The notes under the pieces are model-generated. The model ran no database searches and was not told where the DNA came from. It was given only the letters and a program-made list of their open reading frames with translations. From an uncultured delta proteobacterium (GTDB lineage Bacteria; Myxococcota_A; Polyangia; Polyangiales; Polyangiaceae), in contig CAVXQJ010000001.1 in assembly GCA_963763745.1 (NCBI GenBank), forward strand, positions 194,431-258,430: a DNA stretch of 64,000 nucleotides, in the 5' to 3' direction. Shown here in pieces: positions 1 through 61,355 of this stretch. Position numbers and translations under genes: made by a program. Every line of letters begins with the position of its first letter. Position 1 is the stretch's first letter.

Positions 1-927
1 CATGTGCAACCCCTTCGGGTCCATCGCGATGTCCGCTTTGAGCGCGGTCGATTCCAAAAGCACGAGCGCCTGATCGTCGTATTGCGAACAGAGCCACTCG
101 GGCGCGTCGGTCGTGAGGTAGTTCACGTCGATCTGGAACGAGTGGGCGTTCGTCGGAACTTTGAGCGACACGTCGAGCTCGGTGAGATCGTTCACCGTCG
201 TCGGGTCGCTTCGGTTTTGCGTCTGGTTGTTGTTGTCGAGACACGAGAACGTGCCCGGCGTGAGCGGGTACGTCGTGCCGGTTTTGTTGAACGACGTGCC
301 TTGTTGCGGCGCGACGTAGCCGGTGTCGTTCTCGTCGGCGGCGATGCCGTTCGAGAGCGCGGCCATCGACGAGCCGAATCGAACCGTGAAGACGCCCCAG
401 TCGGGCGCGACTTGGTGCGCGCGATCATCGGCGACGGTCGGGAAGCTCGCCCCGGTCACCCACGGATCGCACATGTCCATCGCGTGCGCGAAGTCGGTCG
501 CGTTGGTCGTCGTGCTCGTGAGCGCCATGTCGCACACGATGACTTCATCGGTCACGCCATTGCAGTTGTCGTCCGCGCCGTTGCTCGAAATCTCGAACGC
601 GCCCGGGTTCACGTTCGGATCGTTGTCGTTGCAATCGACGCACGCGTTGTAACCGTCTTTGTCGTTGTCGATCTTGTCGCACGTCACGCACGCGCTCGCG
701 ACGCATTGATCGGTGAGGTTGCACGCCGTCCCGCACCCGCCGCAGTTCTTGGGATCGCTCGACGTGTCGATGCACGTGCCGTTGCAGCGCGTTTGAGTCG
801 GCGTGCACCCCTGCGGCGGCCCGGCCTCGTTTTGCGACGCGTCACCCGTGCTCGCGTCGAGGTCCGTGTTCGGCGTGCCGCTGCACGCGCCAAGAAGAAG
901 AATCGGCGACAGTTGCCAAAGTTTCAT
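1..927 (-). CDS. Cys-rich lipoprotein with MopE-type putative metal-binding repeats (N-terminal part; runs off window start)
   Basis: Hand reverse-translation from ATG at 927-925 gives MKLWQLSPILLLGACSG (lipobox LGAC), then repeats CxxCDKIDNDKDGYNACVDCNDNDPNVNPGAFEISSNGADDNCNG matching the Myxococcus MopE Cu-binding motif. Frame stays open to position 1. Not in the ORF track because it lacks an in-window stop. Confidence 0.7.
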   Translation of the reverse strand, partial: MKLWQLSPILLLGACSGTPNTDLDASTGDASQNEAGPPQGCTPTQTRCNGTCIDTSSDPKNCGGCGTACNLTDQCVASACVTCDKIDNDKDGYNACVDCNDNDPNVNPGAFEISSNGADDNCNGVTDEVIVCDMALTSTTTNATDFAHAMDMCDPWVTGASFPTVADDRAHQVAPDWGVFTVRFGSSMAALSNGIAADENDTGYVAPQQGTSFNKTGTTYPLTPGTFSCLDNNNQTQNRSDPTTVNDLTELDVSLKVPTNAHSFQIDVNYLTTDAPEWLCSQYDDQALVLLESTALKADIAMDPKGLHM

Positions 928-937
928 GGCCAAAGTT

Positions 938-1792
938 TCATGGGTTGAAGACTTCATCGCCGCCGCCGCCGCCTTGGGGCTTGGGTTTGGGCTTGGGTGT
1001 GGGCGTCGTCGTGACGGTGGTCGTCGTCGTGACGGGCGGCGGTTTCGGTTTCGGCGTCGTCACTTGCGGTGGCGGTTTGGTGTTCGATGCCACGACTTCA
1101 TTCGACGACCGCCCAAACTCGGCGGGCTCGGCGAGCACCGCGCGACCGAGGTCCGCGATGAAGTCCTCCGTTTCGCGGCGATCGAGCCGCGCGTTCTTCG
1201 AGATGTCCGCGAGCACGTCGAACGATGCAGCCATCTCGTCGTGCACGTCGGCCATCGTCGTGCCGCCTTGGCGGAAGAAATCCGCCTTCACGCGCGGCTC
1301 GAGATCGCGTCCGACCTTTGCGAGCTCGTCGCAGCGAGCGGGTACGTCGCGCAGCGCGCGCTTGCGTTTGATCTCCGCGTCGACTGTTGCTTGTAGCGCT
1401 TTGACGAAATCGCGCATCGACTGATCAGCACGCGCCTCCGACGCGAGCATGACCTTGCCGTCGTCGTCGCGCAGATCGAGCCGTGTTGGCCCCGTCACGT
1501 GAGCGATGGAGACGAGCCGCTCGTGTGTCGCTTGGAGGATCGTGACGTCGACGGCATCCGTCGCGATCTTGAGCGCGTCGATGAGCGCGCGGCGCGAAGC
1601 CTTCTTGTCGTCGGACCACCCCGACGCTTCGACTTGGAGCGCGTGCACTTTGGTGAAGTAGTCGTCGTACTGCGCTTGCCCGGTTTGAAAGGGCTGACCG
1701 GCGCGAATCTTCGATTGCGGCTCGAAGAGCGTGCAGCCCGCGACGAGCACGAACACGGCCAATTTCGCGAGGAAACTATGTGCATTCTGCAT
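938..1792 (-). CDS. hypothetical lipoprotein with Pro/Thr-rich C-terminal tail
   Basis: 284-aa ORF; signal peptide with lipobox LVAGC; normal amino-acid composition; PKPKP/TTTT tail. Confidence 0.6.
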   Translation of the reverse strand: MQNAHSFLAKLAVFVLVAGCTLFEPQSKIRAGQPFQTGQAQYDDYFTKVHALQVEASGWSDDKKASRRALIDALKIATDAVDVTILQATHERLVSIAHVTGPTRLDLRDDDGKVMLASEARADQSMRDFVKALQATVDAEIKRKRALRDVPARCDELAKVGRDLEPRVKADFFRQGGTTMADVHDEMAASFDVLADISKNARLDRRETEDFIADLGRAVLAEPAEFGRSSNEVVASNTKPPPQVTTPKPKPPPVTTTTTVTTTPTPKPKPKPQGGGGGDEVFNP

Positions 1793-13900: not shown

Positions 13901-15377
13901 CGATTTGTCCGCTGCGGGCGGGGTGAGCGGCGCGGTGACGCTGCAAGGCGGGCTCAAGGATCCGTTCGGCGATCCGACGCTCGACGTGCGCGCGGATCTC
14001 GCGCCGGTCGATCTCTCCGTGCTCGCGGGCGTCGTGCCGAAGCTCGATCGCGCCGCGGGGACGTTGTCGGGCTCGGCGCGCATCACGGGGCGCGCCGCGG
14101 ATCCGCAGGTCGAAGGCGAGGCGAAGCTGCGCGCGAGCGAGCTCTTCGTGCGCGGGTTGCCGGCGCCCGTGAACGATCTCGAAATCGACGCGCGCGCGGA
14201 CGCGTCCGAGGTGCGCATCACGCACGGCACGGCGAAGTTCGCGGGAGGCACGCTGTCGCTCGGCGGGCGCGTTCCTATCAAGAACCTCGGTCTCGGCAAC
14301 GTGGAGCTCACGCTCGGCGCGCGCAACGTGCGGCTCGCGCCAGCCGACGGAATCGCCGCGGGCCTCGATGCCGATCTCACGCTCACGATCGACGACGCAA
14401 GCGTCGACAAACGCAAATTGCCGAACCTCGCCGGCGATATCGCGATCGCGTCGCTCGACTACACGCGCCCCATCAACCTCGCCGGCGACATCGGCTCGCT
14501 CGGCGCCGCGAAGCGCACCGAGATCGAAACGTACGACCCGACACAAGACGCGATCACGCTCGATCTCCGCGTGCGCGCGAAGGCGCCGCTCCGCATCAAG
14601 AACAACCTCGTCGAGACCGCGATCCAATTCGACAAGCCGCTGCAAGTCACGGGCACGAACCAGCGCTTCGGTCTGCGCGGTGAGATGCACGCGCTCCCCG
14701 GCGGGCGACTGCGATTGCCGTTCGGGTCGAGCGTCTTCGACATCCAGCAAGCGATCGTGCGCTTCGACGATCCCTCGCGCATCGCGGCGCACGTCGACAT
14801 CCAAGCGACGACGGAATATCGCCGCACCTCGAGCCAGAGCTCCACCGGCGCGACGAGCGCGGGCGGAACGACGGGCACGACGTGGCGCATCGCGCTCCAC
14901 GCGTACGGCGACACCAACGATCTCAAAGTCGATCTCTCGAGCGATCCGCCGCTCTCGAACGAGGACATCGTCTTGCTCCTCACGATTGGAATCACGCGCG
15001 CCGAGGCCGATCAGATTCAAGCGGGCACGCTCGGCGCGGGCATCGCGCTCGAAGCGCTTTCGTCCATCACCAACGCGTCCACCGCCGTGAAGAACGCGGT
15101 GCCGATCATCGACGACTTCAAATTCGGCAGCGCATACTCGCCAAAAACGGGCCGCAGCGAGCCCACCGTGCAAGTCGGAAAACGCATCACGAAGAACGTC
15201 AGCGCCAACGTGGCGACGACGCTCTCCGACGAACGCGAGCTCTACGCGAACATCATGTGGAAGCTCGGAAAGAATTTCAGCGTGCTTGGCTCGTACGACA
15301 ACGTCAACAATGACGTAACATCCAGCGCGGTCGGGAACCTGGGCGTCGACTTGCGGTGGAGAGTTGAGTTCAAATAA
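10956..15377 (+). CDS. tamB: translocation and assembly module protein TamB-like (DUF490/AsmA-like), 1473 aa
   Basis: ATG at 10956 within track ORF 10107..15377; N-terminal TM anchor, long beta-rich repetitive body; position immediately upstream of an Omp85 gene. Confidence 0.75.
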   Translation: MARPSNLLSSLPPLPKRRRRVGSRVGRAFARFLTLLLALAGVLPVACIGLVRSAYARDWAMRETAKALHDQGIVAHFDVLLHLWPLSIELANVSIDSSDGGGPALTARRATVRPRFFALMSGKLMIDQIDIEAPHARLVVTDGKLQNLAIKPQPEQKKKGPLHLPFNAFAITDGDVDLTVDSVHVQAHELDLDVQTDDEESGTSLEIALRAGESYVVRQRQTPDGDNAFDEDAVCSIDARVRLTPEDVTVRRFELQGTADLDPGKLTTPPCKLGKDDQRRVELELAHARMKLPKEGELPSDISGHIRARIPVGAATRLAKLPEVEGWVGVDADVRYAAGMQMPEVSGRVTAGGIRVDRYHFADVVDADIAIRNNVIRSPRMIVQLAGGTVHLKDVHVEPLAKTLGAAADIENVDFASLMVALGVAQHPHVGWDIVDIHMANFGGSLDPLKLDGDFTTTTKNFAVWDKWVKDSTRQKLIGFSEAKLGAHLAVRPDSVQFKNARGDLPHTHVDGGFVLLGYNNDLRVDVERAHVDLADITPLAGIPIAGVADAKVHVGTSMNDPKVAGDATVQNFSIADMPFGNITAAHADVDRNGDMQILTLKGVKAQKNKSTYEMPQGKVEFGGEASMKMDANVIAQSLNLRDLLDVFHMNEDPRFDGIDGNLAGDTTLHFVLGGREDECGGGAINLHASPHLSSVELYGEKFDDGDADIDLRWRDRAAGFEGADVDVHAFTLHKVRREKDGATFGSLLGSATIKPGGILHGNVVLEGVPLSRLQTLGPIAPELDGTVSGLAQVSGTIEAFTADADIDVSPVHVRSADLGASKLHVTMTQLPSKANIVGKTRCGAPMQGPFDKAAYIADTSSHGAYVVTGDLFGGQIHLDRVSASRAKQMEVSGALKVQKLALDTVVKAAGLTEGGLAKLSGELSGDVNIDHIKQGDYASSSASFIPRSLTLIDEGKKLVFKPTGSPIVLAGNKVTLPAIELDLSAAGGVSGAVTLQGGLKDPFGDPTLDVRADLAPVDLSVLAGVVPKLDRAAGTLSGSARITGRAADPQVEGEAKLRASELFVRGLPAPVNDLEIDARADASEVRITHGTAKFAGGTLSLGGRVPIKNLGLGNVELTLGARNVRLAPADGIAAGLDADLTLTIDDASVDKRKLPNLAGDIAIASLDYTRPINLAGDIGSLGAAKRTEIETYDPTQDAITLDLRVRAKAPLRIKNNLVETAIQFDKPLQVTGTNQRFGLRGEMHALPGGRLRLPFGSSVFDIQQAIVRFDDPSRIAAHVDIQATTEYRRTSSQSSTGATSAGGTTGTTWRIALHAYGDTNDLKVDLSSDPPLSNEDIVLLLTIGITRAEADQIQAGTLGAGIALEALSSITNASTAVKNAVPIIDDFKFGSAYSPKTGRSEPTVQVGKRITKNVSANVATTLSDERELYANIMWKLGKNFSVLGSYDNVNNDVTSSAVGNLGVDLRWRVEFK

Positions 15378-18300
15378 GCCGTTCATCATAGCGGCGTTGT
15401 TGGTCGCGTTCCTGATTCACTCCGTGCTCGCGCACGCGGGCGTGCCTTTGTCCGTCACGCCGCTGCCCGCGCCGGAGCTACCGCCGATCAACGCAGCGAC
15501 CGTGCAAGTACCGTCGCCCGCGCCGGATCTGAGCGCGTACGAAGGAAAGCCCGTGCGCGCGGCGGAGGTCGTCTTCGACGAGGATCCGTGGGACGACATC
15601 AAGCCGCGCCCGCTTCGCATGGTGCACATCGGCGATCCGTTTCGCGCGGAGATTGCTCGCACCGCGATGCTCGAAGCGCTCGCCAATGGGCTCGCGGGAA
15701 ACGCGAAGGTGAACGTCTTCAGCGAAGGCGACGGCGTGCACATCCGCGTCCACGCGATTCCACGTCGCGTCATCGACGGTCTGCGCGTCGAGCTCCATCG
15801 CGCGCAAGTCGACCGCGAAGAAATTCTCCACGAGTCGCAGCTCGAGGAGGGCGGCGAAATTCTCGGCAGCGAGATCGCGGCGCGCAAAAAGCGAATCGAG
15901 GTCGTCCTCGCGCGGCACGGCTTCCCGCAAGCGCAAGCGGAGATCTCGACGCGCGGAACCGACACCGAGGGCCACGTGCTCGTGCTCCTCGACGTGAACG
16001 TCGGACAACCGCGCAAGGTCGCGCGCCGCATCTTTTATCCGTTCGGCGCGAAGCCCGCGGACCTCGAGCCGTTCACGAAGCAATACGACATCGACGAGGG
16101 CGATCGCATCGACGAGGCCGCGCTCCAGCAAGCCGATCTCGCGCTCGAAAACAAATTGCGCGCGGCCGGTTGGTACGAAGCCGCGGTGAAGCACGACATC
16201 GTGCTCGTCCAATACGCGAGCGGCGCCGTCATCACGCTCCGCGTTCGCATCGACAGCGGCCCGCGCTACTTCACGCGCTTCGACGGCAACGCGCACTACG
16301 ACGCCGACGCCCTCACGAGCGCGCTCGCGCTCGAGTCCGATCCCGACACCGGCGAGCAACACCTCGCCGACAAGATTCGTCGCTTCTACGTCGCGCGCGC
16401 GTTCCTCGACGTGATCGTCACGAGCGAGCTCCGCGGGAAACCGACGGACGAGTCACGCTACCTCGTCCTCCACGTTCGCGAAGGGCGCCGCACCGCGGTC
16501 ACCGCGCGGCAGTACCCGTGCGTGCGCGATCAAGACATCGCGCATCTCGACGCGGGCGGGCCAAGCTCGGCGTCGGCAATCGGACGCGAGATCGACAGCT
16601 TCCTCGACGAGGATCTCCCCGGCGCGGACTTCGTCTCCGATCCCGATCCGCGCGCCATCGATCGCGATCTCGGCGGTGGAGGCGGGACGCGCTCCGCGCC
16701 GATCGATCTCGATCCGAGCGCGACGTACTCGCCCGAGACGTACGACAAGGGCATTCAGCACGTGCAGGAGCTCTATCGCAACGAGGGCTTCATGAGCGCG
16801 CTCGTCGGGCCCGTTCAAGTCATGCGCCGCCAATGCGATCCGCACTCGCCGCCCGGACGCTGCGTGCCAATGCCGTTCACGCAGCAGCTGCCGGAGGCGT
16901 GCAATTACGATCGCAGCGGGCTCCCCACGCCGGTCGCGCCGCTCGATGCGAGCTTCACGTGCACGCCCGATCCCACGCACGGCGTCGAGTGCGAGCCCGC
17001 CGTGCGCCTTCGCATCCCGATCCGACTCGGGCCGCGCACGTCGCTCTCGGACGTCGCGTTCTTCGGTGCAAAATCGATCAGCGAAAAAGAGCTCGCAGAC
17101 TCCGCCGCGCTCGACCTCGGCAAGCCCGTCAGCACGCTCAAGGTCGACGAGGCGCGCCGGCGCGTCGTCGATCGTTATCGCGAGGAAGGGTTCTACTACG
17201 CGGACGTGAAGTACGACGTCCAACGCTCGCTCGACAACACGCAGGCGCGCGCGCGCTTCGACGTGAACGAGGGCGATCGCGTCGTCGTCACGCAGATCGT
17301 GATTCAGGGAAACGCGATCACGAACGAGTCGGTCATTCGCCGGCGCGTCGCGCTCAAGATCGGCGAGCCGTTTCGCACGAGCGACGTGCGCAAGACGCAA
17401 GAGCGCATCGCGACGCTCAACGTCTTCACGAGCGTCAGCGTCGTCTTGCAAGACGCGCAGGTCCCGCAAAAAAGAAAGACGGTCATCATCACCGTGTCGG
17501 AGAAGCCGACGCAGTACCTCGAGCCGTCGCTCGGTTTCTCGACCGGTGAAGGCGCGCGCGGCTCGCTCGAGTACGGCTACACGAACCTCTTCGGCAGCGC
17601 GATCAGCGCCGTCATTCGTGCGCGCGTCTCGTACCTGCCCGATTTTCTGATTTCGGATCCGACCATCCTCCAGAATTTCCAAAAGCTCAGCGTCGGCGAT
17701 CGCATCGCGTATCGCGTCACGCTCTCGCTCGGCTTCCCCGACATCGGGCTCGGGCCCGACGTCCGCGCGAACCTCGACGGCGTGTATCTGCAGGACGTCG
17801 AGCGCTACTTCATCATCGACAAGGCGGCGTTCATTCCGACCGCGGTTTTCCGGCCGATCAAGCAACACGCCTTCGCGCTCACGGTGAGCGCCGAGTACAA
17901 CAACCTCAACGTCTTCAACAACCAGTCACCCGCCGAAGCCGTGGCGCTCAGCGGCGGCAACCTCGACGTGCAGCGCTTGCTTCGCGCACCCGCGGGTCAG
18001 AGCGCGGTGCTCTCGCAGCGACTCTTGTGGACGTGGGACCGCCGCGACAACGCGTTCAACGCACACAAAGGAACGTTCTTCAGCCTCAACGCCGAGCACG
18101 TGAACTGGTGGCCGCTCGGCGTCCCGGCGAACGAAACCATTTGCACGATCTGCTCGAACCTCAACCAGGTGCCGCTCTTGCCGCAGACGGTCGCGCCGAC
18201 GCCGGGACACTTTCTCAAGCTCGGCGAGACGTTCTCGGGATATTTCCCGCTGCCGTTCTACAAAAAGATCACCGTCGCCGCGACGCTCCGCATCGGCGCG

Positions 18301-18733
18301 ATCGTTCAGCTCGCGAGCGGCTCGACGACGTATCCCGATCGCTTCTACTTCATGGGCGGCATCGACTCGCTGCGCAGCTACCTGCAAGACAGCATGATGC
18401 CGCAGGACGCCGCCGACCAGATCGACGAAGAAGATCATCACACCGGGCCAGGTCGCCATTCGCGGCGGCAACCTCCTCGTGAATCCGCGCGTCGAGCTTC
18501 GCATTCCCATCACGGGTCCGCTCGAGACGGTGCTCTTCTTCGACACGGGAAATCTGTGGCAGGACGCGTCGTACATCTTCAACAACGGAATCTCGTTCCG
18601 CGCCGCCGTCGGCTCCGGTATTCGCGTGCAAACGCCCGTGGGGCCGATTGCGCTCGACTATGGAATCAACCTCACGCGTCAGGAGGCGTACGAGGATTTC
18701 GGCGCGCTCAATTTCGCCATCGGTCTTTTTTAG
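15364..18733 (+). CDS. Omp85/BamA-TamA family outer-membrane protein with POTRA repeats (~1120 aa); apparent +1 frame disruption near 18440-18450
   Basis: TTG start 15364 with signal peptide; POTRA-like repeats; Cys-rich insertion; C-terminal strands and terminal F are in the +1 frame (track ORF 18479..18733: VELRIPITGPLETVLFFDTGNLW...AIGLF); joining needs removal of one base from a short GGG/CC run. Confidence 0.75.
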
Positions 18734-19836
18734 AAGAAACGTCGGAGCACGACGCCGGCGATCGCGCCGCCCGCGACGAGCCACGTCGAGTTGACGCGAA
18801 AGCGGAAGAGCACGACCGCGCCGACGATGGCGATGATCGCGGTAGGCACGTCGACGATGGCCGCGACGGCGAGCTGCACGGTGACCACCGCCATCAGTGC
18901 GACGGACGCCGCGCTCACGCCGTCGAGAAACGCGCTGGCGCTCTTCGAGCTTCGGATGCGCGCGAGGAGCGGTCGTGTCAGAGCGACGAGCGCGAAGCCC
19001 GGAAGAAAAATCGCAATCGTGGATACGATCGCGCCCGGCACGCCGCCCACGAGATAACCGATGAACGTCGCGCTCGTGAACACGGGGCCCGGCGTGACTT
19101 GACCGACGGCGACCGCGTCGAGGAGCTGCGCTTCGGTGAGCCAATGGAGTCGCACGACGAAATCGTCGCGCAAGAACGCGAGCAGCACGTAGCCGCTCCC
19201 GAACACGAGCGCGCCGATCTTCAAGAACGCGAGGAACAGTCCGAGCAAGCTCGCGTGCGCGGCGGTCGTCGCGATCGTGGGCGCGACGATCACCGCGCGC
19301 GATGCGTTCGGATCCTTCGCGCCACGCGCGACGGTGGTCGCCGCGCCGGACGCGAGCAAAATCCAAAGCGGCGTCACGCCGAGCGCGGATGCGATCGCCG
19401 CACCCAAAGCGACCGCACCGAGCCACCACGAACCCTTCACCGCTTTCGGCGCGAGGCCCGCGAGCGCTTGCGCGATCACGCCGATCACGATGGGCTTCAC
19501 GCCGTAGAGCACACCCGCCATCTGCGGCAGCGATCCGAATCGCGCGTACGCCCATGCGAGCGCGAGCACGATCAACGCGGCAGGCGCGATGAAGCACACA
19601 CCACCGAGCACGAGCCCGAGGAAGCCGGCGCGCTCGTACCCGATGTAGATCGCCATCTCCGTCGAGCTCGGACCCGGGATGAGATTCGACGCTGCGAGCA
19701 ATTCGAGAAACCGCTCGTGCGTCAGCCATTTTCGGCGACGAACGAATTCGTCCTCCATGATCGCGATGTGCGCGGCGGGTCCGCCGAATGCGGTCAGCCC
19801 GAGCCGCAAAAACGCGCGGGCGACTTCCCCCCTCAC
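18730..19836 (-). CDS. chrA: chromate transporter ChrA (CHR family)
   Basis: FLRLGLTAFGGPAAHIAIMEDEFV...LIPGPSSTEMAIYIGY and a second CHR repeat; start assigned to GTG 19836-19834, which overlaps the TAG of the upstream DUF962 gene (TAGTG). Confidence 0.8.
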   Translation of the reverse strand: MRGEVARAFLRLGLTAFGGPAAHIAIMEDEFVRRRKWLTHERFLELLAASNLIPGPSSTEMAIYIGYERAGFLGLVLGGVCFIAPAALIVLALAWAYARFGSLPQMAGVLYGVKPIVIGVIAQALAGLAPKAVKGSWWLGAVALGAAIASALGVTPLWILLASGAATTVARGAKDPNASRAVIVAPTIATTAAHASLLGLFLAFLKIGALVFGSGYVLLAFLRDDFVVRLHWLTEAQLLDAVAVGQVTPGPVFTSATFIGYLVGGVPGAIVSTIAIFLPGFALVALTRPLLARIRSSKSASAFLDGVSAASVALMAVVTVQLAVAAIVDVPTAIIAIVGAVVLFRFRVNSTWLVAGGAIAGVVLRRFF

Positions 19837-20201
19837 TACGCGGGCTGCGGCGCGTGCGTGCCGTTCGTCTTTTTCGAGACGTGGCGCGCGTGCTCGCGCA
19901 CTTGGTAGATGCGCTTCTTCGTCAAGAATTCGATCCACTCGACGGTGATCCACACGGGGCCGATCGCGAGGTATCGCAGGTCGCGCGTGAACGACGGCTT
20001 TTTGCCTTCGAACACGTGGCCGACGAATTGAAAGGCCCAGCCCGTGCTGAACATGCCGAGCCCGACAGGCGGCGCGATGGGAATGACCGGCAGCGACGCG
20101 ACGATCATCGGAATGCCGATCATGTGGCATGCCTTGTTGACCGGATGCAGGTGGTCTTCGTGGTATTGGCGCATGTAGTCGTGGAAGGACATCGTCGACA
20201 T
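19836..20201 (-). CDS. DUF962 (Mpo1-like) small membrane protein
   Basis: MSTMSFHDYMRQYHEDHLHPVNKACHMIGIPMIVASL...; protein-like ORF in an alternate frame relative to the Arg-rich extension of the chrA track ORF. Confidence 0.7.
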   Translation of the reverse strand: MSTMSFHDYMRQYHEDHLHPVNKACHMIGIPMIVASLPVIPIAPPVGLGMFSTGWAFQFVGHVFEGKKPSFTRDLRYLAIGPVWITVEWIEFLTKKRIYQVREHARHVSKKTNGTHAPQPA

Positions 20202-20227
20202 TGCGTTGCGAGTTTAGCACGCGGAGA

Positions 20228-20315
20228 GGGCTTTAGGCTTTGGGCTTTAGGCTTTAGGAGAAGAGCGATCACGCTTCTGCTTCTTGCCAAAGCCCAAAGC
20301 CCAAAGCCCAAAGCC
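20228..20315. repeat. ~88-nt near-perfect palindrome: (GGGCTTTR)x4 - 28-nt spacer - (AAAGCCC)x4
   Basis: Left arm 20228-20258 is GGGCTTTAGGCTTTGGGCTTTAGGCTTTAGG; right arm 20287-20315 is its reverse complement as heptamer tandem repeats; sits in the divergent region between the DUF962/chrA and tldD starts. Confidence 0.85.
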
Positions 20316-20326
20316 AAGAGGGCGCA

Positions 20327-21889
20327 GTGAAGCGCAGAGAGTTTCTCGTGCTGACGGGCGCATTGCCGCTCGCGTGCTCGCCTCCGCCCGCGCGCGTGCC
20401 GCGCGTCGTGCGCATCGAAGACGTGCTCGGGAGCGCGCTCGACGCGGCGAAGCGCGCGGGCGCGGCGTATGCGGATGCGCGCGTCGTGAGGCGGCGCGAT
20501 CAAGGCGTCTCGACGCGCGAGGATCACGTCGTCGACGTGCACGACGACGAGTCGTACGGAATCGGCGTGCGCGTGCTCGTCGTGGAAGGCACGCAGTCGT
20601 GGGGATTCGCCGCGACGGCCGACGTCGACGAAGCGAGCGCGGCGCGCGCCGCGGAGCGCGCAGTGGCGATCGCGCGCGCGGATCTCGGGCCGCGCAAGCG
20701 CCCCATCGTGCTCGCGCCCGTCGCGATTCATCGCGACAAGTGGGCGACGGCGTTCGAGACCGATCCGTTCGACGTTCCCGTCGCGGAGAAAGCCGCGCTG
20801 CTTCGCGACGTGTGGAACGCGGCGCGCGAAGTGAAACGTGCAAAATACATGGATGGAAACGCGCGCGCGCAAGACGAGCACAAGACGTTCGCGTCGACCG
20901 AAGGCGCGCTGATCGAGCAACGCATCGTGCGCGTGTCCGCGGGCTACTCCATCACCGCGACGGACGATGCGGGCGACTTCGTCTCGCGCGCGCACGAGCT
21001 CCCGCCGATGCAAGCGGGCTGGGAGCACGTCGCGCGATCGTCTTTGAAACGCGACGCGCGAAAAATCGCGGAGGACGCAGCGGAGAAGCTCGCCGCCGAG
21101 AGCGTCACGCCCAAGAAGTGCGACGTGATCCTCGCGCCGAGCAACCTGTGGCTCGTCATCCACGAATCGATCGGCCACTCGACCGAGCTCGATCGCGCGC
21201 TCGGTTACGAAGCGAACTTCGCAGGCACGAGCTTCGCGACGCCGGACAAAATCGGAAAGCTCGAATACGGCGGCGAGAACGTCACGTTCTACGCCGACAA
21301 GACGACGCCCGGCGGGCTCGCGACGTGCGGCTACGACGACGACGGCGAAAAAACGCAGAAGTGGAACCTCGTCGAAAAAGGAAAGCTCGCCGCGTTCCAG
21401 ACGACGCGCGATCAAGCCGCGTGGATCGGCGAGAAGCGCTCGCGCGGGTGCTCGTACGCAGAAGATTGGTCGTCGATTCCATTTCAACGCATGCCGAACG
21501 TGTCGCTTTTGCCGCCTGAAACGAGCACGACGCGCGACGTGTCGATCGAGGACATGATCGCCGCGACCGACGACGGCGTGCTCATCAGCGGCGATGGATC
21601 ATGGTCGATCGATCATCAGCGCTATAACTTCCAGTTCGGTGGTCAGACGTTTCACGCGATCAAGAATGGGAAGATCGCGGGCGCGCTGCGCGACGTCGCG
21701 TATCAATCGAACACCGTCGACTTCTGGCACGCGTGCGACATGGTCGGCGGCGAGCGGCATGTTTCGCTCCACGGATCGCTCGTCGACGGAAAAGGCGAGC
21801 CGCCGCAATCGAACGCGGTGAGCCACGGTTGTCCGCCCGCGCGATTCAAGAACATCAACGTGCTCAGCACCAAGGTGACGAAGCCGTGA
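20327..21889 (+). CDS. tldD: TldD family metalloprotease with twin-arginine signal
   Basis: MKRREFLVLTGALPLA Tat-type leader; TldD/PmbA fold motifs (HESIGHSTELD); 520 aa. Confidence 0.85.
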   Translation: MKRREFLVLTGALPLACSPPPARVPRVVRIEDVLGSALDAAKRAGAAYADARVVRRRDQGVSTREDHVVDVHDDESYGIGVRVLVVEGTQSWGFAATADVDEASAARAAERAVAIARADLGPRKRPIVLAPVAIHRDKWATAFETDPFDVPVAEKAALLRDVWNAAREVKRAKYMDGNARAQDEHKTFASTEGALIEQRIVRVSAGYSITATDDAGDFVSRAHELPPMQAGWEHVARSSLKRDARKIAEDAAEKLAAESVTPKKCDVILAPSNLWLVIHESIGHSTELDRALGYEANFAGTSFATPDKIGKLEYGGENVTFYADKTTPGGLATCGYDDDGEKTQKWNLVEKGKLAAFQTTRDQAAWIGEKRSRGCSYAEDWSSIPFQRMPNVSLLPPETSTTRDVSIEDMIAATDDGVLISGDGSWSIDHQRYNFQFGGQTFHAIKNGKIAGALRDVAYQSNTVDFWHACDMVGGERHVSLHGSLVDGKGEPPQSNAVSHGCPPARFKNINVLSTKVTKP

Positions 21890-29822: not shown

Positions 29823-29871
29823 GCCACCCCGAACGGAGTCGGAGTCGGGGTCGGAGTCGGGGACGGAGTCG
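29823..29871. repeat. hexanucleotide tandem array (GGAGTC)x7 with GGGGTC/GGGGAC variants
   Basis: GGAGTCGGAGTCGGGGTCGGAGTCGGGGACGGAGTCGGAGTC read directly; lies just 3' of the phosphoesterase gene (minus strand). Confidence 0.85.
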
Positions 29872-29891
29872 GAGTCGGAATTCGATGCGAA

Positions 29892-30812
29892 TCAATCCCC
29901 CGGATCCGACCCCGACACGTTGTCCGCCTCCATCGACTGCTTCCCGTCGAAACGCACGACGTCCACGTCGACGCGATCGCCCGCGACGTCGATCACCAAG
30001 AAGTGATGAAACGCATGCTCGGGCCCAGCGTGATTGAGCGGCGCGCCCAAGCCACCCGTGATGTACCCGCGGATGCCGCCTTGGTTCACGCGGATGAATT
30101 GATGCACGTGGCTCGAGAGGATCAGCTCGACGCGCGCGTGTTGGAACATCGCGAGCGCGGCGTCGGAGTCCGCCTCGCCCTGCGCGCCGTCTTCGTCCAT
30201 GCCGTGCGACGACACGCCGTTGTGCGCGAGCGGTTTGTGCATGCCGACGAAGATGTGGCGCACTTCGGGATTGCCGCGCGCGTCGTCGAGATCTTTCTCG
30301 AGCCACTCGAGCTGATCTTTTCCGAAGCCGGCTTGGCTGACGTTGTCGAGCGCGATGAAGTGGACGTGGCCGGGGAGGTTCGCCGAGTAGACGACTTTGT
30401 CGTCGAGCAGGCTGCGAATTGGCGTGTACTTCGTGCCGAGGAAGTTCTCGCGGAATTTTTTCTTTGCGCCGTTCTCGCCGATGCCGAGCGCGCCGAGGAG
30501 CTTCACTTCGTGGTTGCCGAGCGCGGGATAGAACGGGACGCCGCCGAGGTTGTCGAGCTCCGCGCGGAAGTGCGCGTCGAACTGCGGCGTGAGCTCCATG
30601 TCGCCGAGAAAGAGAAACGCGCTCGCGCCGCGCGCCTTCGCTTCGCGAAACGCCCACGGGAGAACGTGCGCTGCATCGTCGCGCGAGTCGCCGCCCGCGA
30701 TGAAGCGAACGTGCCCGTCGGGAACGGGAACCGCCACGACGGGCGGAGCCTTCGCCTCGGGCCCACACGCGAGGACGATCGCGAATGCGGCAAACGTCGT
30801 AACCGGTTTCAT
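29892..30812 (-). CDS. metallophosphoesterase lipoprotein (calcineurin-like)
   Basis: MKPVTTFAAFAIVLACG lipobox; GDxxD/GNHE/HxH phosphoesterase motifs; ATG 30812 overlaps the stop of the FGE gene (ATGA). Confidence 0.75.
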   Translation of the reverse strand: MKPVTTFAAFAIVLACGPEAKAPPVVAVPVPDGHVRFIAGGDSRDDAAHVLPWAFREAKARGASAFLFLGDMELTPQFDAHFRAELDNLGGVPFYPALGNHEVKLLGALGIGENGAKKKFRENFLGTKYTPIRSLLDDKVVYSANLPGHVHFIALDNVSQAGFGKDQLEWLEKDLDDARGNPEVRHIFVGMHKPLAHNGVSSHGMDEDGAQGEADSDAALAMFQHARVELILSSHVHQFIRVNQGGIRGYITGGLGAPLNHAGPEHAFHHFLVIDVAGDRVDVDVVRFDGKQSMEADNVSGSDPGD

Positions 30813-31639
30813 TTCGCGCAGCGGATTCCGACGACGACGCTCTTCTCCGTCGTCAAGTGTCCATTGCGCGTCGCGGCCGTCGCGGTCTTCTCCGTGTACC
30901 AACCGCCGCCGCGATACATGCGATACGGCGTCGCACATGCGTGTTGTGGATAATTGCAATACGGGCTCGACGTCCACTCGTAGACGTTGCCTGCCATGTC
31001 GAGGATTCCGAAAGGCGACGCGCCGCGCGGATACGAGCCGACGGGCGCGGTCTCCGCGTAGCCATCGTTGCCCGGGTACATCGCCTTCTTCGTTTCGTTG
31101 TGCACAGTCGTCGCGTATGCGACGCACTCGTCGCCGCACGCGTTGAGCAAGCGCGCATTCGGCGGTTGATTGCCCCACGGATATCTTCGTCCGTCGGTTC
31201 CGCGCGCGGCGTACTCCCACTCGGGCTCCGTCGGGAGACGCGCGCCGATGTAATTGCAATACGTCATCGCCTGATTCCAATCGACGCAGTTGACTGGATG
31301 ACCGCCGCGCGCCGCGTTCTGCGAGTTGCACATCGCGTCGCTGCCGGGCGCGGTGCACGTTCCCGCGGAGACGCACGCGTCGTACTCGGCTTCGGTGACT
31401 TCGAGTCGCTCCATGCAGAAGCCCGTGACCGTGAGCGAGTGCGCGGGGTGCTCGTCGGGCTCGCCTTCGGTCGCGGGCGAGCCCATCATGAACGTGCCCG
31501 ACGGAACGCGCATGAAGCCCGGCGGGCAACCCGTGCTCACGGCGAGCTGTGCGCGCGCGTCCGATTTTTCCCCGCGCGTCGCGAACGAAATCGCGACGAC
31601 GACCATCACGCCAAGGGCACCTTTGATTCGAAAATGCAC
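30809..31639 (-). CDS. FGE-sulfatase (SUMF1/formylglycine-generating enzyme) domain protein
   Basis: Signal peptide; GNVYEWTSS and RGGGWY motifs typical of the FGE-sulfatase domain. Confidence 0.8.
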   Translation of the reverse strand: MHFRIKGALGVMVVVAISFATRGEKSDARAQLAVSTGCPPGFMRVPSGTFMMGSPATEGEPDEHPAHSLTVTGFCMERLEVTEAEYDACVSAGTCTAPGSDAMCNSQNAARGGHPVNCVDWNQAMTYCNYIGARLPTEPEWEYAARGTDGRRYPWGNQPPNARLLNACGDECVAYATTVHNETKKAMYPGNDGYAETAPVGSYPRGASPFGILDMAGNVYEWTSSPYCNYPQHACATPYRMYRGGGWYTEKTATAATRNGHLTTEKSVVVGIRCAK

Positions 31640-31710
31640 GCCCGGAGGCTAGCACACCGTAAAAAAGGGCATTTGGAGATAGGCGTCCTTTTTGCTTGGC
31701 GGAGAATCCG

Positions 31711-34326
31711 ATGATGAAGAAGAGCTTCTTTCTTGGATGCGCGGCGCTCGTCACGGCGGCTGCGCCTTCGCTCGCGCAGACGCGCGCGGCGGTGATCGAT
31801 CCGAACATCGTGCGCGCGCTCGACACCGGGCTCACCGGTCCCTTCGTGCGGAGCGCGCCCGTCCCTGGAAAAACGACCGTGCTCATCGAGCTCGCGTCGC
31901 CCGCGACGCCGGCGATTTCGTCCATGCTCGCGCGTTCGGGCGTGAAGCTCGCGTTCGCGGAAGGAAAAGCGCTCGCGTACGACAGGTTCGTTCCCGCCGA
32001 CGTCACGCCGCAGAGCCTCGCTGCGCTCGCGAAGATGAGCGAAGTGAAACGCGTCACGCTCGCGAGCGCGCGCGGTCCGCTCCCGCTCGATCAATCCGCC
32101 ACGCTCATGCGCCTCGCCGATGCGCGCGGCGCGCGCGCGGATCTCGACGAGCTCGACGGCGACGGAACGCTCATCGCCGACATCGACTCGCTCGTCGATC
32201 CGTTCCAGCCCGCGTTCTTCAAAGGCGACGCTGGTTACTTCGATTGGATCGATCAGGACGGCGATGGAGTCTTCACGCCGGGCAAGGACGCGATCGATCT
32301 CGATCAAAACGGAACGGGCGACGCGAGCGAAGTCGCCGAGCTCATCGAAGCCAAGCAAGTCGACTACTACGGCAAAGACACGGGCGCGCGCGCGAGCGAC
32401 GCGTTCGATCCGTCCGTGGATTTTCTCTTCATCGACTCGAACGGAAATGGCGCGCGCGATTTCGGCGCATCGAACGGGTTCGACGACACGACGCCCGCGT
32501 TCGGCGAGCCGCTCTTCGTGCCCGACGACGTGAACAAGAACGGCACGCTCGACGTCGGCGAGCGCGTCGTTCGGCTCGGCACGTCGAAGTTCCGAAAGAT
32601 CTACGTCAACCTCGATTACCCGCCGTACACGGCGAACCACACGTACGTGCGCGGCGTCGATCTCTCCGCGTCGAAGATCGATTACTCGAGCGGCGGGCTC
32701 GAAGGATTTCCCGATGCGTTCCACGCGACGGGCGTGAACACGATTTTGGTTGGCGACGTTCCGCTCGTCGGGCGCAGATGGGTCGGCATCGCGCCGAACG
32801 CGGACGTGGAAGTCGCGTGGGACGTGGAGCAAACGCAGCAGGGACTGCCGGTGAAAGGGCTCACGTGGGCGCTTCAAGACAAGCCCGACGTCGGTCTCTT
32901 CGAGCTCGCCGTGTGGACGAGCGTTCCCGTCGATGGAACCGACGCGCTCTCCACGATGATCGACACCGCGGTGAACAAAGGAGCCTTCACCGCCACGTGC
33001 CCGACGGGCGATCAAGGCTCCGCGCTCAAGCACGCGCACGTCGACCTCGCGCCGGGCGCGCAACAGGCGATGCATTGGACCCTTCCGGCGAAAGACAAAG
33101 CCGGACAAGGTCCGCTCTCGTACGTCGAGCTCTCGATGGACATTCGCGGCGCCGAGCCCGAAGCGGTGATGCTCTCCGGTCCGACCGGCGAGAGCGCCAA
33201 CATGATGCAATTTCTCATGGGCACGCTCTCGACGGGCGACTCCTATTACGTGACGACGCAGCAGACGACGCGCGGCACGTGGATGTACGACGTGATCCTC
33301 TACGTCGACACGAACCAACCGCCGTTCCCGACGGGCACGTGGAGCGTCAGCGTGACGGGCAACGCGTCGACTGCGATCACGGTCGATGGCTTCGTCGCCG
33401 ACGACAAATCGAGCTGGGCCGTCGGTGCTGCGTGGGACGAAGCGATCGCGACGAACGCGGGCACGATCGGCGCGCCTGCGACGGCGGATCATTGCATCGC
33501 GGTGAACGCGGCGCCCGATCACGTCTCGACGCCCGCCGAGCCTTGGTACGATTTGCATTTCTATCCCGAGTACGACGTCGCGCCGAACTACACCGAGACG
33601 CAAGGACAGATTCGCGCGTACTCGCCGCGCGGCCCGCGCATCGACGGCATCATGAAGCCCGACATCACCGCGCCCGACAATCCGTGGGTCGCGAACGAGT
33701 GGATGCCGTCGCTGAAATATCCGTACGGATCGTATTCGGTGTTCGGTGGAACGTCGGGCGCGTCTCCGCACGCGACGGGCGTCGCGGCGCTCCTCGCGCA
33801 AACGGGTTTGCACGGCGACGCCGCGCGCGACGCGATTCGCACCGGCGCGATCGTCGACTCGGACACGGGCGCGGTTCCGAACGGCGATTATGGATTCGGA
33901 CGATTGAGCGCGGCGGGCGCGCTCGGCGTCGCGAACGCGGGCGTGGAGCCTTCGGTGAAGATCAACGTCACGAGCGCGAACACGCAAGCGGGCATCACGC
34001 TGACGCTCGACGCGAAATCGAACGACGGAAACGACGGCGCGCTCCAAGCGAAGTGGGACGATGGCTACGACGGAACATGGGACACGCCTTACGCTGCGAT
34101 AGCAACGCACTCCGTCTCCGCGAACACCCCCGGAAAATATCCGTTCAAGGTGCGCGTGCGAAACGCGGGCGGTCGCGTCGCCGAAGCGGTCGTGTGGGCC
34201 GACGTGACGGACACCGTCGTCACGAGCTCGGGATGCAGCTGCAACACGGCGCCTTCGCGCACGGAGATGGGCTTCGCGGGCTTTGCGCTCGCGCTCGCCG
34301 CCTTCGCGCGCCGCCGCCGCCGTTGA
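31711..34326 (+). CDS. S8-family subtilisin-like serine peptidase with MYXO-CTERM sorting domain
   Basis: AVIDPN Asp motif; GTSGASPHATGVAALL Ser motif; C-terminal GCSC...GFAGFALALAAFARRRRR = MYXO-CTERM; GGAG 7 nt upstream of ATG 31711. Confidence 0.85.
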   Translation: MMKKSFFLGCAALVTAAAPSLAQTRAAVIDPNIVRALDTGLTGPFVRSAPVPGKTTVLIELASPATPAISSMLARSGVKLAFAEGKALAYDRFVPADVTPQSLAALAKMSEVKRVTLASARGPLPLDQSATLMRLADARGARADLDELDGDGTLIADIDSLVDPFQPAFFKGDAGYFDWIDQDGDGVFTPGKDAIDLDQNGTGDASEVAELIEAKQVDYYGKDTGARASDAFDPSVDFLFIDSNGNGARDFGASNGFDDTTPAFGEPLFVPDDVNKNGTLDVGERVVRLGTSKFRKIYVNLDYPPYTANHTYVRGVDLSASKIDYSSGGLEGFPDAFHATGVNTILVGDVPLVGRRWVGIAPNADVEVAWDVEQTQQGLPVKGLTWALQDKPDVGLFELAVWTSVPVDGTDALSTMIDTAVNKGAFTATCPTGDQGSALKHAHVDLAPGAQQAMHWTLPAKDKAGQGPLSYVELSMDIRGAEPEAVMLSGPTGESANMMQFLMGTLSTGDSYYVTTQQTTRGTWMYDVILYVDTNQPPFPTGTWSVSVTGNASTAITVDGFVADDKSSWAVGAAWDEAIATNAGTIGAPATADHCIAVNAAPDHVSTPAEPWYDLHFYPEYDVAPNYTETQGQIRAYSPRGPRIDGIMKPDITAPDNPWVANEWMPSLKYPYGSYSVFGGTSGASPHATGVAALLAQTGLHGDAARDAIRTGAIVDSDTGAVPNGDYGFGRLSAAGALGVANAGVEPSVKINVTSANTQAGITLTLDAKSNDGNDGALQAKWDDGYDGTWDTPYAAIATHSVSANTPGKYPFKVRVRNAGGRVAEAVVWADVTDTVVTSSGCSCNTAPSRTEMGFAGFALALAAFARRRRR

Positions 34327-61080: not shown

Positions 61081-61170
61081 CGGGCGAGACCGAGACGGAG
61101 ACGGACGCAGAGCCGGAGACGGACGCAGAGCCGGAGACGGTGACGGACACCGAGACGGAGACGGGGCGCG
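61081..61170. repeat. hexanucleotide tandem array (GAGACG-like) of about 14 units, with internal 18-nt duplication GAGCCGGAGACGGACGCA x2
   Basis: GAGACCGAGACGGAGACGGACGCAGAGCCGGAGACGGACGCAGAGCCGGAGACGGTGACGGACACCGAGACGGAGACGG read directly, about 85 nt upstream of the RAYT start. Confidence 0.85.
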
Positions 61171-61355
61171 TCAGCGCGTTTTGCGCGTTTTCGTCACGGA
61201 CCGCGCCTTCTTCTTCGCGCGCTTGTTCGTCGGCTTCTTCGCCGTGCTCTGCTTCTTCGTCTTCTTCTTCGGCTTCGCGGACTTCGCGCGCGTCTCGCCG
61301 AACCACCAGCCCTGTTGCGGATGAGCGAGGGATCGCGCTTGCTAGTAGTTGATGC

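Follow-up and report, generated by a model that had tools for sequence, protein, structure and literature searches.

Two transcription units diverge from a short intergenic region of the window, by which we mean the whole 64-kb stretch of DNA that was analyzed. The leftward unit (- strand) begins with an Mpo1-like (DUF962) gene followed by chrA, and the rightward unit (+ strand) has the order tldD-pmbA-metallophosphoesterase, with tldD first. This arrangement (DUF962/chrA on one side and tldD-pmbA on the other) had been proposed from inspection of the letters, in what we call the sequence-only reading, and is confirmed by Pfam. TldD carries a twin-arginine signal, K-R-R-E-F-L. The divergent start codons are separated by 125 nt (20202-20326), not 126 nt as first counted, and this gap has a G+C content of 55% (window, 65%). 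The features of the region are as follows.

about 19830-18730, - strand: chrA (ChrA), next after the Mpo1-like gene; Chromate_transp, E=5e-87
19836-20201, - strand: Mpo1-like (DUF962) gene, first gene of the leftward unit; Pfam PF06127, E=5.7e-17
20229-20258, + strand: left arm of the element, (GGCTTTR) x4.3, with GGGCTTT and AGGCTTT alternating; TRF period 7, 91% matches
20259-20286, no strand assigned: central spacer of 28 nt, AGAAGAGCGATCACGCTTCTGCTTCTTG, in which the stem is continued to a 4-nt loop
20287-20315, + strand: right arm, (AAAGCCC) x4.1, a perfect tandem array and the inverted partner of the left arm; TRF 100% matches
20316-20326, + strand: SD-like site, AAGAGGGCGCA, with GAGGG at 20318-20322, 4 nt ahead of the GTG at 20327
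20327-21889, + strand: tldD, a TAT-signal TldD/PmbA metallopeptidase with a GTG start; supported by Pfam, homologues and synteny in relatives

Structure of the element and its setting

The 88-base palindrome at 20228-20315 of the window had been described as a pair of inverted heptamer arrays, and both TRF and an inverted-repeat search bear this out. It consists of GGGCTTT AGGCTTT GGGCTTT AGGCTTT AGG, then the spacer, then CC AAAGCCC AAAGCCC AAAGCCC AAAGCC. The complementary arms (20229-20255 and 20289-20315) are 27 nt long with the G strand first, and they match at 25 of 27 positions (93%) in the inverted-repeat search. They are therefore not the exact reverse complements that had been described: AGGCTTT stands in place of GGGCTTT in two of the four left units, creating a pair of A.C mismatches on the + strand that become G.U pairs in RNA from the - strand. 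These A-type units also introduce TAG, and thus stops in all three frames. The spacer is partly palindromic, as noted before, and extends the stem through GAGCG/CGCTT and AGAAG/CTTCT, with an indel, to the 4-nt loop ATCA (20268-20271). The repeat search also detected a 41-nt gapless quasi-palindrome within the element.

The unit is confined to this site in the window. All six matches to GGCTTTRGGCTTT with at most one mismatch fall within the element, where 0.04 would be expected, and no other three-unit array was found in the 64-kb window with three mismatches allowed. GGGCTT hexamers at 977-1004 are unrelated to the element; they belong to coding Pro/Lys-rich repeats on the - strand. A 24-mer from the spacer has no match in JGI metagenome contigs, so that neither a further copy nor a strain variant of this element appears there, and the spacer sequence is unique to the locus upstream of tldD. 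A search of the element against Rfam 15 returned no match at the gathering score, with only sub-threshold look-alikes of miRNA precursors, that is, generic long hairpins.

The prediction of a long hairpin or cruciform-capable palindrome filling the divergent gap is upheld by folds of both DNA and RNA, whose z scores against shuffled sequence range from -6 to -7.4. The + strand RNA is predicted to fold with -64.2 kcal/mol (z -6.0) and the - strand RNA with -68.8 kcal/mol (z -7.4), the latter hairpin being the more regular, with an uninterrupted stem of 29 bp. Within the predicted tldD leader, the hairpin is self-contained (-64 to -72 kcal/mol) and ends 11 nt before the start, and the SD and GTG beside it are predicted to be unpaired.

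Upstream of the Mpo1-like gene, a -10-like TAnnnT sequence, TAAACT, lies on the - strand (+ strand 20211-20216), about 9-10 nt before the ATG. This TAnnnT is common to all seven relatives considered below, and TAAACT is probably a promoter element of the Mpo1-like gene. A sigma-70 consensus scan of the 125-nt gap found no promoter. No T-run terminator was found in the gap beyond either arm, the sole consensus match being the small inner hairpin. Both flanking genes have the C-rich arm as the sense strand upstream of their starts.

Orthologous loci in related genomes

The TldD of the window is 100% identical to one database protein (P0001), and the named relatives in this search are Polyangiaceae and Labilithrix MAGs. 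Because the next-best matches are only 81% identical or less, the window represents a Polyangia (Myxococcota) MAG without a close sequenced relative. Seven relatives with TldD 74-81% identical were compared (L121/L122, L123, L124, L125, L224/L225, L226 and L227). All seven keep the divergent pair of Mpo1-like (-) and TldD (+) genes. The gap between them is 14-17 nt in six relatives, which share the pattern "cat", then 14-17 nt ending in TAGC or TAAC, then "atg". In the seventh, L124, the gap is about 70 nt; there, the tldD start is shifted about 50 nt downstream, and ACG occupies the old start position, as in the window. No GGCTTT array, not even of two units, was found in the loci of the seven relatives (4-7.5 kb each). 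Alignment with these loci delimits two further features of the window.

20202-20218, no strand assigned: ancestral divergent gap of 17 nt, kept in the relatives as judged by sequence comparison
20219-20228, + strand: putative relic of the ancestral tldD start, ACG CGG AGA G; in the alignment, ATG stands there in 6/7 relatives, after ...TAGC

The codons that follow the ACG specify R-R, resembling the twin-arginine motif, and their frame runs into TAG in the first heptamer. We infer that the ACG at 20219-20221 is the decayed ATG of the ancestral tldD, in which case the present GTG start (20327) lies 108 nt downstream of the ancestral one. Because the gaps of the relatives are short and free of arrays, and because the old ATG appears to persist as ACG, the alignment identifies the roughly 105 extra bases as a derived insertion in the lineage of the window. 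The same comparison places their point of entry within, or directly beside, the first codons of the old tldD frame. The timing of the insertion and its exact junctions are fuzzy at this distance, the nearest relatives being only about 81% identical in TldD.

The 9-mer that abuts the left arm, CGCGGAGAG, recurs with 8/9 identity at 20333-20341 (CGCGGAGAG/CGCAGAGAG; null p about 0.03). We regard this direct repeat as weak evidence of a duplication, because no comparable flank repeat is present in 66 other members of the family described below.

The source of the sequence is a MAG, and palindromes and simple sequence repeats (SSRs) are error-prone in assembly, so a chimeric join or a collapsed repeat at the palindrome might be suspected. 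However, the flanks are syntenic neighbors in seven relatives, and the join is thus genuine. A read pair is also longer than the element, and the 276-kb contig continues on both sides of it. Moreover, the same architecture occurs in 72 independent contigs, and published complete genomes of Xanthomonas show it as well. We therefore consider an assembly artefact to be exceedingly unlikely.

The orthologous loci also bear on the proposal that the heptamers serve as operator half-sites, arrayed for a multimeric transcription factor in control of both divergent units. This proposal draws on the presence of inverted 7-bp repeats within a divergent promoter region and on the reported binding of heptameric direct repeats by some regulators, such as SARPs (PMC5930380). 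However, the array is absent from 7/7 orthologous regions, which lack room for it. Across many phyla, identical arrays are found at hundreds of unrelated loci, mainly at 3' ends, and their unit number is unstable. In addition, head-to-tail spacing of 7 bp would place successive sites on different faces of the helix. Mainly because the array is not conserved among relatives, the operator interpretation, which had been raised by the sequence-only reading, is largely refuted as far as the comparison of sequences goes, and we give it very little credence. The seven relatives without an array also argue against a conserved terminator or insulator. The poor conservation that we observe across orthologous regions is the outcome that the sequence-only reading had itself taken to speak against a regulatory role. 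On this comparison, it is very unlikely that the flanking genes have an operator array of their own or a conserved insulator here.

GGCTTTR arrays in other genomes and metagenomes

A scan of one genome per GTDB species with the query GGCTTTRGGCTTTRGGCTTT located GGCTTTR arrays at at least 120 genome loci, whereas we estimate that chance would produce only a handful. Hosts among the matches listed include Acidobacteriota, Cyanobacteria (many of them Chamaesiphon), Bacteroidota, Myxococcota (Kofleriaceae and others), Planctomycetota, Hydrogenedentes, Gemmatimonadota, several Proteobacteria, Verrucomicrobiota, Firmicutes, CPR and more. Also among these matches, several single genomes have multiple loci, including other Myxococcota MAGs. 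The tandem repeats in the listed loci comprise 346 arrays of period 7, 61 of period 6 and 68 of period 8, and many of the other units are one-base variants such as AGGCTGT, AGGTTTT and AGGTGTT. The genome under study has one copy within its 64 kb; further copies may be dispersed elsewhere in this genome, to judge by other Myxococcota (Kofleriaceae L002/L097/L099, L107). In a separate scan of viral contigs, only 26 matches were obtained, with no sign of an association of GGCTTTR arrays with phages.

To qualify as an inverted partner, a sequence had to show complementarity at 16/21 positions or more within 200 nt. Among the matches listed, 105 arrays had enough flank, and 31 of these (about 30%) have a partner downstream of the G strand, which is the orientation in the window. 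The partner lies upstream in eight of the 105, all of them from Bacteroidota and with AT-rich spacers of about 80-110 nt. Some inverted arrays seemed at first to bracket small "cargo" genes (L099, L107), but these are better read as arrays that follow the stop codons of neighboring genes.

In metagenome sequences, the full hairpin architecture, with three units required per arm and 10-40 nt between arms, is present in 72 contigs of 61-71% G+C, several of which apparently derive from soil or rhizosphere. Arms in this set have 3-10 units, with a mode of four (70 arrays, versus 41 with three), and the median spacer is 28 nt. Measured in the same way, the window element has 4+4 units and a 33-nt spacer, and it is a typical member of this recurrent hairpin architecture. 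The recurrence of the arrays and of this architecture at hundreds of unrelated loci in many phyla points to a generic repeat family and not to a site-specific regulator. Membership in this family is assigned by architecture and unit sequence, as judged from the contigs compared.

Every locus of the 72-contig set has its own loop and its own flanks. Likewise, six copies in one Hydrogenedentes genome have unrelated loops and flanks, while sharing the arm pattern (AGGCTTT)n(AGGCTGT)m - loop - (ACAGCCT)m(AAAGCCT)n. This common "grammar" of the arms indicates common descent or copying between loci, as opposed to independent invention. We found no conserved core in the family, loops and flanks being unique in these 72 + 6 copies, and no mobilizing enzyme or shared internal sequence was found. 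A search for target-site duplications in 66 family members, whether abutting or offset by up to 45 nt, gave nothing above null. Because they lack both target duplication and a conserved core, the GGCTTTR hairpins are not classical MITEs, and the absence of target duplication makes cut-and-paste an improbable mode of spread.

The number of units is hypervariable in the family. Two contigs whose flanks are 99.3% identical have 7 versus 11 left units and 4 versus 5 right units, and left units in this pair interconvert between GGGCTCT and GGGCTTT. The L207/L208 locus has 6 versus 4 units, and two further contig pairs are identical. Such changes raise the possibility that the window element is a contingency (phase-variable) SSR, in which slippage by +/-7 bp would alter promoter-start spacing or hairpin length and thereby switch tldD-pmbA, Mpo1-like-chrA or both. 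In line with this proposal, the SSR sits in the promoter or 5' leader region, and other family loci, L207/L208 among them, do differ in unit number from one 99%-identical strain to another. Also, an SSR in a 5' UTR of Haemophilus is reported to drive phase variation by way of RNase III processing (PMC12721329). However, the genes at issue are of housekeeping type (a peptidase and a chromate transporter), not surface antigens, and the family adjoins genes of all kinds, mostly at their 3' ends. Phase variation was moreover judged unlikely for the analogous repeats of Xanthomonas (Rehm et al. 2015, PLoS One; PMC4692102). We consider it unlikely here as well.

The arrays follow clear rules of placement. 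The A-type units of the family supply TAG or TAA stops in all frames, and the arrays are therefore non-coding; about 10% of them lie within ORFs as called by a crude ORF caller. With the same crude calling, the G-rich strand is the sense strand after stop codons (98 versus 21), and the C-rich strand is the sense strand before start codons (43 versus 10). Hairpins with the G strand first (n=47) lie between convergent genes in 18 cases, between co-directional genes in 26 and between divergent genes in 3, again by crude ORF calling. The family thus has a bias toward 3' ends. The divergent context is its rarest (3/47), and the window element could be tolerated there by luck or could have acquired a role.

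This placement is relevant to the idea of a bidirectional 3' hairpin, in which the element would act as a terminator or insulator that blocks antisense run-through between the two genes. As a description of where the family usually resides, the idea is fair. In favor of such a function, the hairpin is symmetric, arrays are enriched directly after stops, convergent sites outnumber divergent ones, and T-runs after family arms are modestly enriched (11-14% versus 4.4%). It does not describe the window copy, which lies between two start codons, where there is nothing to terminate, and which has no T-run after either arm. With an ancestral gap of only 17 nt, at least the tldD promoter has to be located upstream of the hairpin, and a terminator that worked efficiently there would shut off tldD. 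The relatives also manage without the element. Termination is thus improbable as its function at this locus.

An alternative based on DNA structure is that supercoiling drives the element into a cruciform (or into G-quadruplexes) that modulates both promoters, or that it serves as a supercoil sink or sensor. Negative supercoils accumulate between divergent units under the twin-domain model, and the element is located between two such units. The DNA hairpin is also predicted to be stable (-38 kcal/mol, z -6.5), with its 4-nt loop. For quadruplexes, four-unit arrays of the analogous published repeats form G4 in vitro (PMC4692102). However, the window element has only two GGG tracts on the top strand and three on the bottom strand, and thus falls short of the four consecutive G3 tracts of a G-quadruplex motif. 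AGGCTTT makes up about 45-49% of the units of the family, so G4 is not conserved, and we rejected it as a family property, since an AGG in about half of the units breaks the G3 tracts. Moreover, none of the orthologous promoter regions contains the element, and the family is depleted in divergent regions. A role of this kind is unlikely.

Comparison with known repeats and proposed origin

Over-represented tandem repeats of heptamers are known from bacteria, and neither their origin nor their function is established. The closest published precedent for the element is the repeats of Rehm et al. (PMC4692102), who describe arrays of GGGAATC in Xanthomonas (about 185 in each genome) and of GGGGAYT in Nostoc. 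These heptamers are 89-93% intergenic and close to ORF ends, prefer four units, and lie between divergent ORFs in 7-8% of cases, with the G strand being sense after stops and antisense before starts. In Xanthomonas, 70-75 convergent array pairs per genome could form stem-loops or cruciforms; array length varies between species, and no function was found (PMC4692102). The GGCTTTR arrays resemble these repeats in being tandems of a 7-nt unit that is degenerate at one or two positions, and also in their convergent inverted pairs, their intergenic location near ORF ends, their preference for four units, the same G-strand rule, the rarity of divergent sites and the variation of length between relatives. 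They differ in the unit, since only half of the GGCTTTR units carry GGG, and in the hosts, which are Myxococcota, Acidobacteriota, Cyanobacteria such as Chamaesiphon, Bacteroidota and others. Also, 83% of sites in Xanthomonas are shared by two species (PMC4692102), whereas here the site is empty in all available relatives, which are far more distant.

A second group of heptamers is represented by the TAACTGA direct arrays that lie just upstream of starts in Beggiatoaceae, Cyanobacteria and Bacteroidetes (MacGregor 2015; PMC4679880). Like these arrays and the STRR heptamers of cyanobacteria, GGCTTTR is the same heptamer in tandem at many intergenic sites with a patchy distribution across phyla. 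Moreover, TAACTGA arrays are often only a few nucleotides upstream of starts, as is the element, and a post-transcriptional role is suspected for them. However, they have another unit, are nearly all direct (1 inverted in 170 sets) and are without the hairpin architecture. In a preprint on Nostoc, heptamer arrays modestly affected promoter reporters.

Mobile hairpins offer further parallels. REP/REPIN sequences, which are mobilized by RAYT, and BIMEs also form hairpins of roughly 80-110 nt from two inverted halves and a short spacer, and they share with the family an extragenic location mainly downstream of genes, many copies with unrelated flanks and no target-site duplication. Yet in REP sequences each half forms an imperfect palindrome of its own and contains a conserved GTAG, whereas the arms of the element are non-palindromic tandem heptamers of variable number, without GTAG. 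The Correia elements of Neisseria, which are hairpin MITEs, are likewise short palindromic insertions beside genes; they are co-transcribed as long hairpins, can be cleaved by RNase III and can change the expression of neighbors. They are, however, bounded by terminal inverted repeats of a constant 26 bp, share a conserved core and duplicate TA, whereas the element has SSR arms, a unique loop and no detectable duplication. Foldback (FB) transposons have inverted termini made of variable numbers of tandem sub-repeats, with loops that are heterogeneous or absent, and the shared inner and outer order of unit types in the Hydrogenedentes copies is an FB-like trait. However, FB transposons are eukaryotic, differ in size by orders of magnitude and include members associated with a transposase. 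None of the tandem strings GGGCTTTGGGCTTT, AAAGCCCAAAGCCC, GGCTTTAGGCTTT and TAAAGCCTAAAGCC turned up a paper in a literature search. Thus, repeats of this kind are known, and the papers searched contain no description of the GGCTTTR unit, its hosts or the stereotyped hairpin.

The reading that we favor, and consider probable, is that the element is a lineage-specific copy of a foldback heptamer hairpin at the 5' end of tldD, not a dedicated control site. The general form of the family is (GGCTTTR)n - short unique loop - (YAAAGCC)n, as one type of dispersed heptameric SSR that often occurs in convergent inverted pairs. We propose that the hairpin was either gained or built up inside the initial codons of the ancestral tldD, adjoining the 17-nt divergent gap. 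The old ATG would then have decayed to ACG, with translation of tldD now starting at the GTG behind the GAGGG ribosome-binding site, just outside the hairpin. On the other side, the -10-like box of the Mpo1-like gene has been kept, while everything more than 12 nt upstream of this box is now heptamer sequence that displaced what was there before. Any transcript reaching farther upstream on this side would include the more regular - strand hairpin.

Given an ancestral gap of 17 nt, the tldD promoter would have to lie inside the Mpo1-like gene, and, if it still does, the tldD leader carries the hairpin. Transcripts that start upstream of the element would place a very stable stem of roughly 30-40 bp in both 5' leaders. 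Duplexes of about 30 bp with near-perfect pairing are the type of substrate that RNase III cleaves, and a 5' stem can also stabilize mRNA. Transcription through the element and processing by RNase III are therefore plausible, and the stem could act as an RNase III substrate or as a 5' stabilizer, leaving the SD and start of tldD unpaired. Slippage in unit number would be expected at the element, as at other loci of the family. Based on its derived status, the ubiquity of the family across phyla and the 3'-end bias of the family, we believe that the element is probably a neutral or mildly modulatory passenger, that is, a generic hairpin in 5' leaders.

Such a hairpin may have originated in two ways. 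It may have been acquired whole and without duplication, by REPIN/HUH-like transposition, by foldback-like behavior or by templated break repair. Alternatively, it may have grown in situ from a small local hairpin, through slippage and palindrome-templated correction. A broader proposal, which we offer tentatively and regard as possible at best, is that GGCTTTR foldbacks are cross-phylum non-autonomous elements or break-repair scars, undescribed in the papers searched, that spread without target duplication. The window copy would then be a fresh insertion into tldD, rescued by a new SD and GTG. Spread might proceed by an HUH/REPIN-like single-stranded DNA route or by templated addition of repeats at both ends of a break, the latter of which would directly yield convergent inverted arrays. 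Under this broader proposal, GGCTTTR hairpins would normally serve, or be tolerated, as 3'-end hairpins.

For the locus upstream of tldD, the result is mostly deflationary: annotation of the palindrome as an operator, an insulator or a terminator of tldD/chrA would be unwarranted. The evidence for a family of GGCTTTR hairpins is somewhat more interesting than the locus itself. Comparison of filled and empty sites indicates that a hairpin of this type can insert into the 5' end of a gene, which then tolerates it through relocation of the start codon. The family adds a third widespread unit, GGCTTTR, to the known heptamers, together with a stereotyped hairpin of four units, a loop of roughly 28 nt and four units that is present in many soil phyla. 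Its rules of orientation and context match those in Xanthomonas, which suggests a common underlying process. Identification of this process, if achieved, would explain a recurrent feature of bacterial intergenic DNA.

The divergent gap and its flanking genes

The ancestral start position of tldD, which reads ACG at 20219 in the window, also reads ACG rather than ATG in relative P0011 (L124, 2872-2945). There, it is followed by approximately 50 nt of extra, unrelated sequence and then by a downstream GTG for tldD. Because of this arrangement, either the 5' end of tldD was remodelled independently, or loss of the start preceded the arrival of the palindrome at 20228-20315.

On the other side of the gap, a TAnnnT sequence is conserved 9 to 10 nt upstream of the ATG of the Mpo1-like gene across the gap sequences that were read, those of the window (20211-20216) and of relatives L122-L125. 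Its variants include TAAACT, TATTCT, TACTCT, TAAGCT and TAAATT, among others. This conservation suggests that TAnnnT is a -10 box lying within the 14- to 17-nt divergent gap, and that the Mpo1-like mRNA is nearly leaderless.

In relatives for which the corresponding flank is visible (L121-L125 and L224-L226), chrA is not found at the position that it occupies in the window. The Omp85/POTRA (BamA-like) ORF at 15364-19908 is about 390 codons longer than its homologues (approximately 1123 aa), and its extra length passes antisense through chrA (region 18730-20220). A frameshift near 18.4 kb in the Omp85/POTRA gene, whether real or an assembly error, is suggested by this excess length, by an Omp85 domain match that ends at profile position 220 of 325, and by a distinct + frame ORF (18479-18733) that terminates at the expected end of the gene.

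Other repeats in the window

Several further repeats were identified in the window.

Additional repeats in the window
915-943: perfect 14-nt tandem duplication, GCCAAAGTTTCATG x2.1
977-1054, - strand coding sequence: GGGCTT/GGGTTT hexamer and 18-nt repeats, Pro-Lys-rich (PKPKP, TonB-like)
29834-29879: hexamer array (CGGAGT/CGGGGT) x7.7, left part of the quasi-palindrome at 29834-29916
61086-61277: dense coding-type tandem repeats (TRF): GAGACG x13; 18-nt unit x2.7, 96% identity; CTTCTTCGTCGG x5

The region at 29834-29916 is a second quasi-palindrome based on simple sequence repeats. Its hexamer array lies immediately 3' of a - strand ORF (29892-32057), and the inverted partner of the array, the 19-nt CCCCGGATCCGACCCCGAC (89% complementary), lies 18 nt beyond it. 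The duplication at 915-943 includes CAT, a possible start codon on the - strand, and therefore may represent a duplicated translation-start region. The resemblance of the 977-1054 repeats to the heptamers is superficial; their period is 6 and they read as coding sequence on the - strand.

Inverted arrays in other genomes

Two contigs from different soil metagenomes carry the same locus (L156, 1220-1330, and L195, 5700-5850), with 99.3% identity in the flanks. L156 has 7 units in the left arm versus 11 in L195, with GGGCTCT units changed to GGGCTTT, and 4 versus 5 in the right arm. At this locus, the TAG stop codon of the upstream gene abuts the first heptamer unit.

In two Myxococcota MAGs (L099, 5274-5632, and L107, 6434-6876), four-unit arrays in inverted orientation lie 300 to 400 nt apart and enclose a small gene, which encodes a 93-aa protein in L099 and, in L107, a lipoprotein-like product rich in Cys. 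In both MAGs, an outer neighbouring gene ends with its stop codon right before each array.

Paired arms can diverge as whole arrays, because a Kofleriaceae locus (L002, 1022-1150) pairs (GGGCTTT)4 with tandem copies of another heptamer, (CCGAAGT)5, 30 nt downstream. CCGAAGT is the complement of GGACTTC, and only 5 of its 7 positions are complementary to GGGCTTT.

At eight Bacteroidota loci (L039, L042, L050, L059, L070, L078, L090 and L093), the order of the arrays is reversed, with AAAGCC units preceding GGCTTT units, and the arrays flank an AT-rich spacer of approximately 80 to 110 nt. This combination of reversed order and AT-rich spacer is a Bacteroidota-specific variant of the inverted-array architecture.
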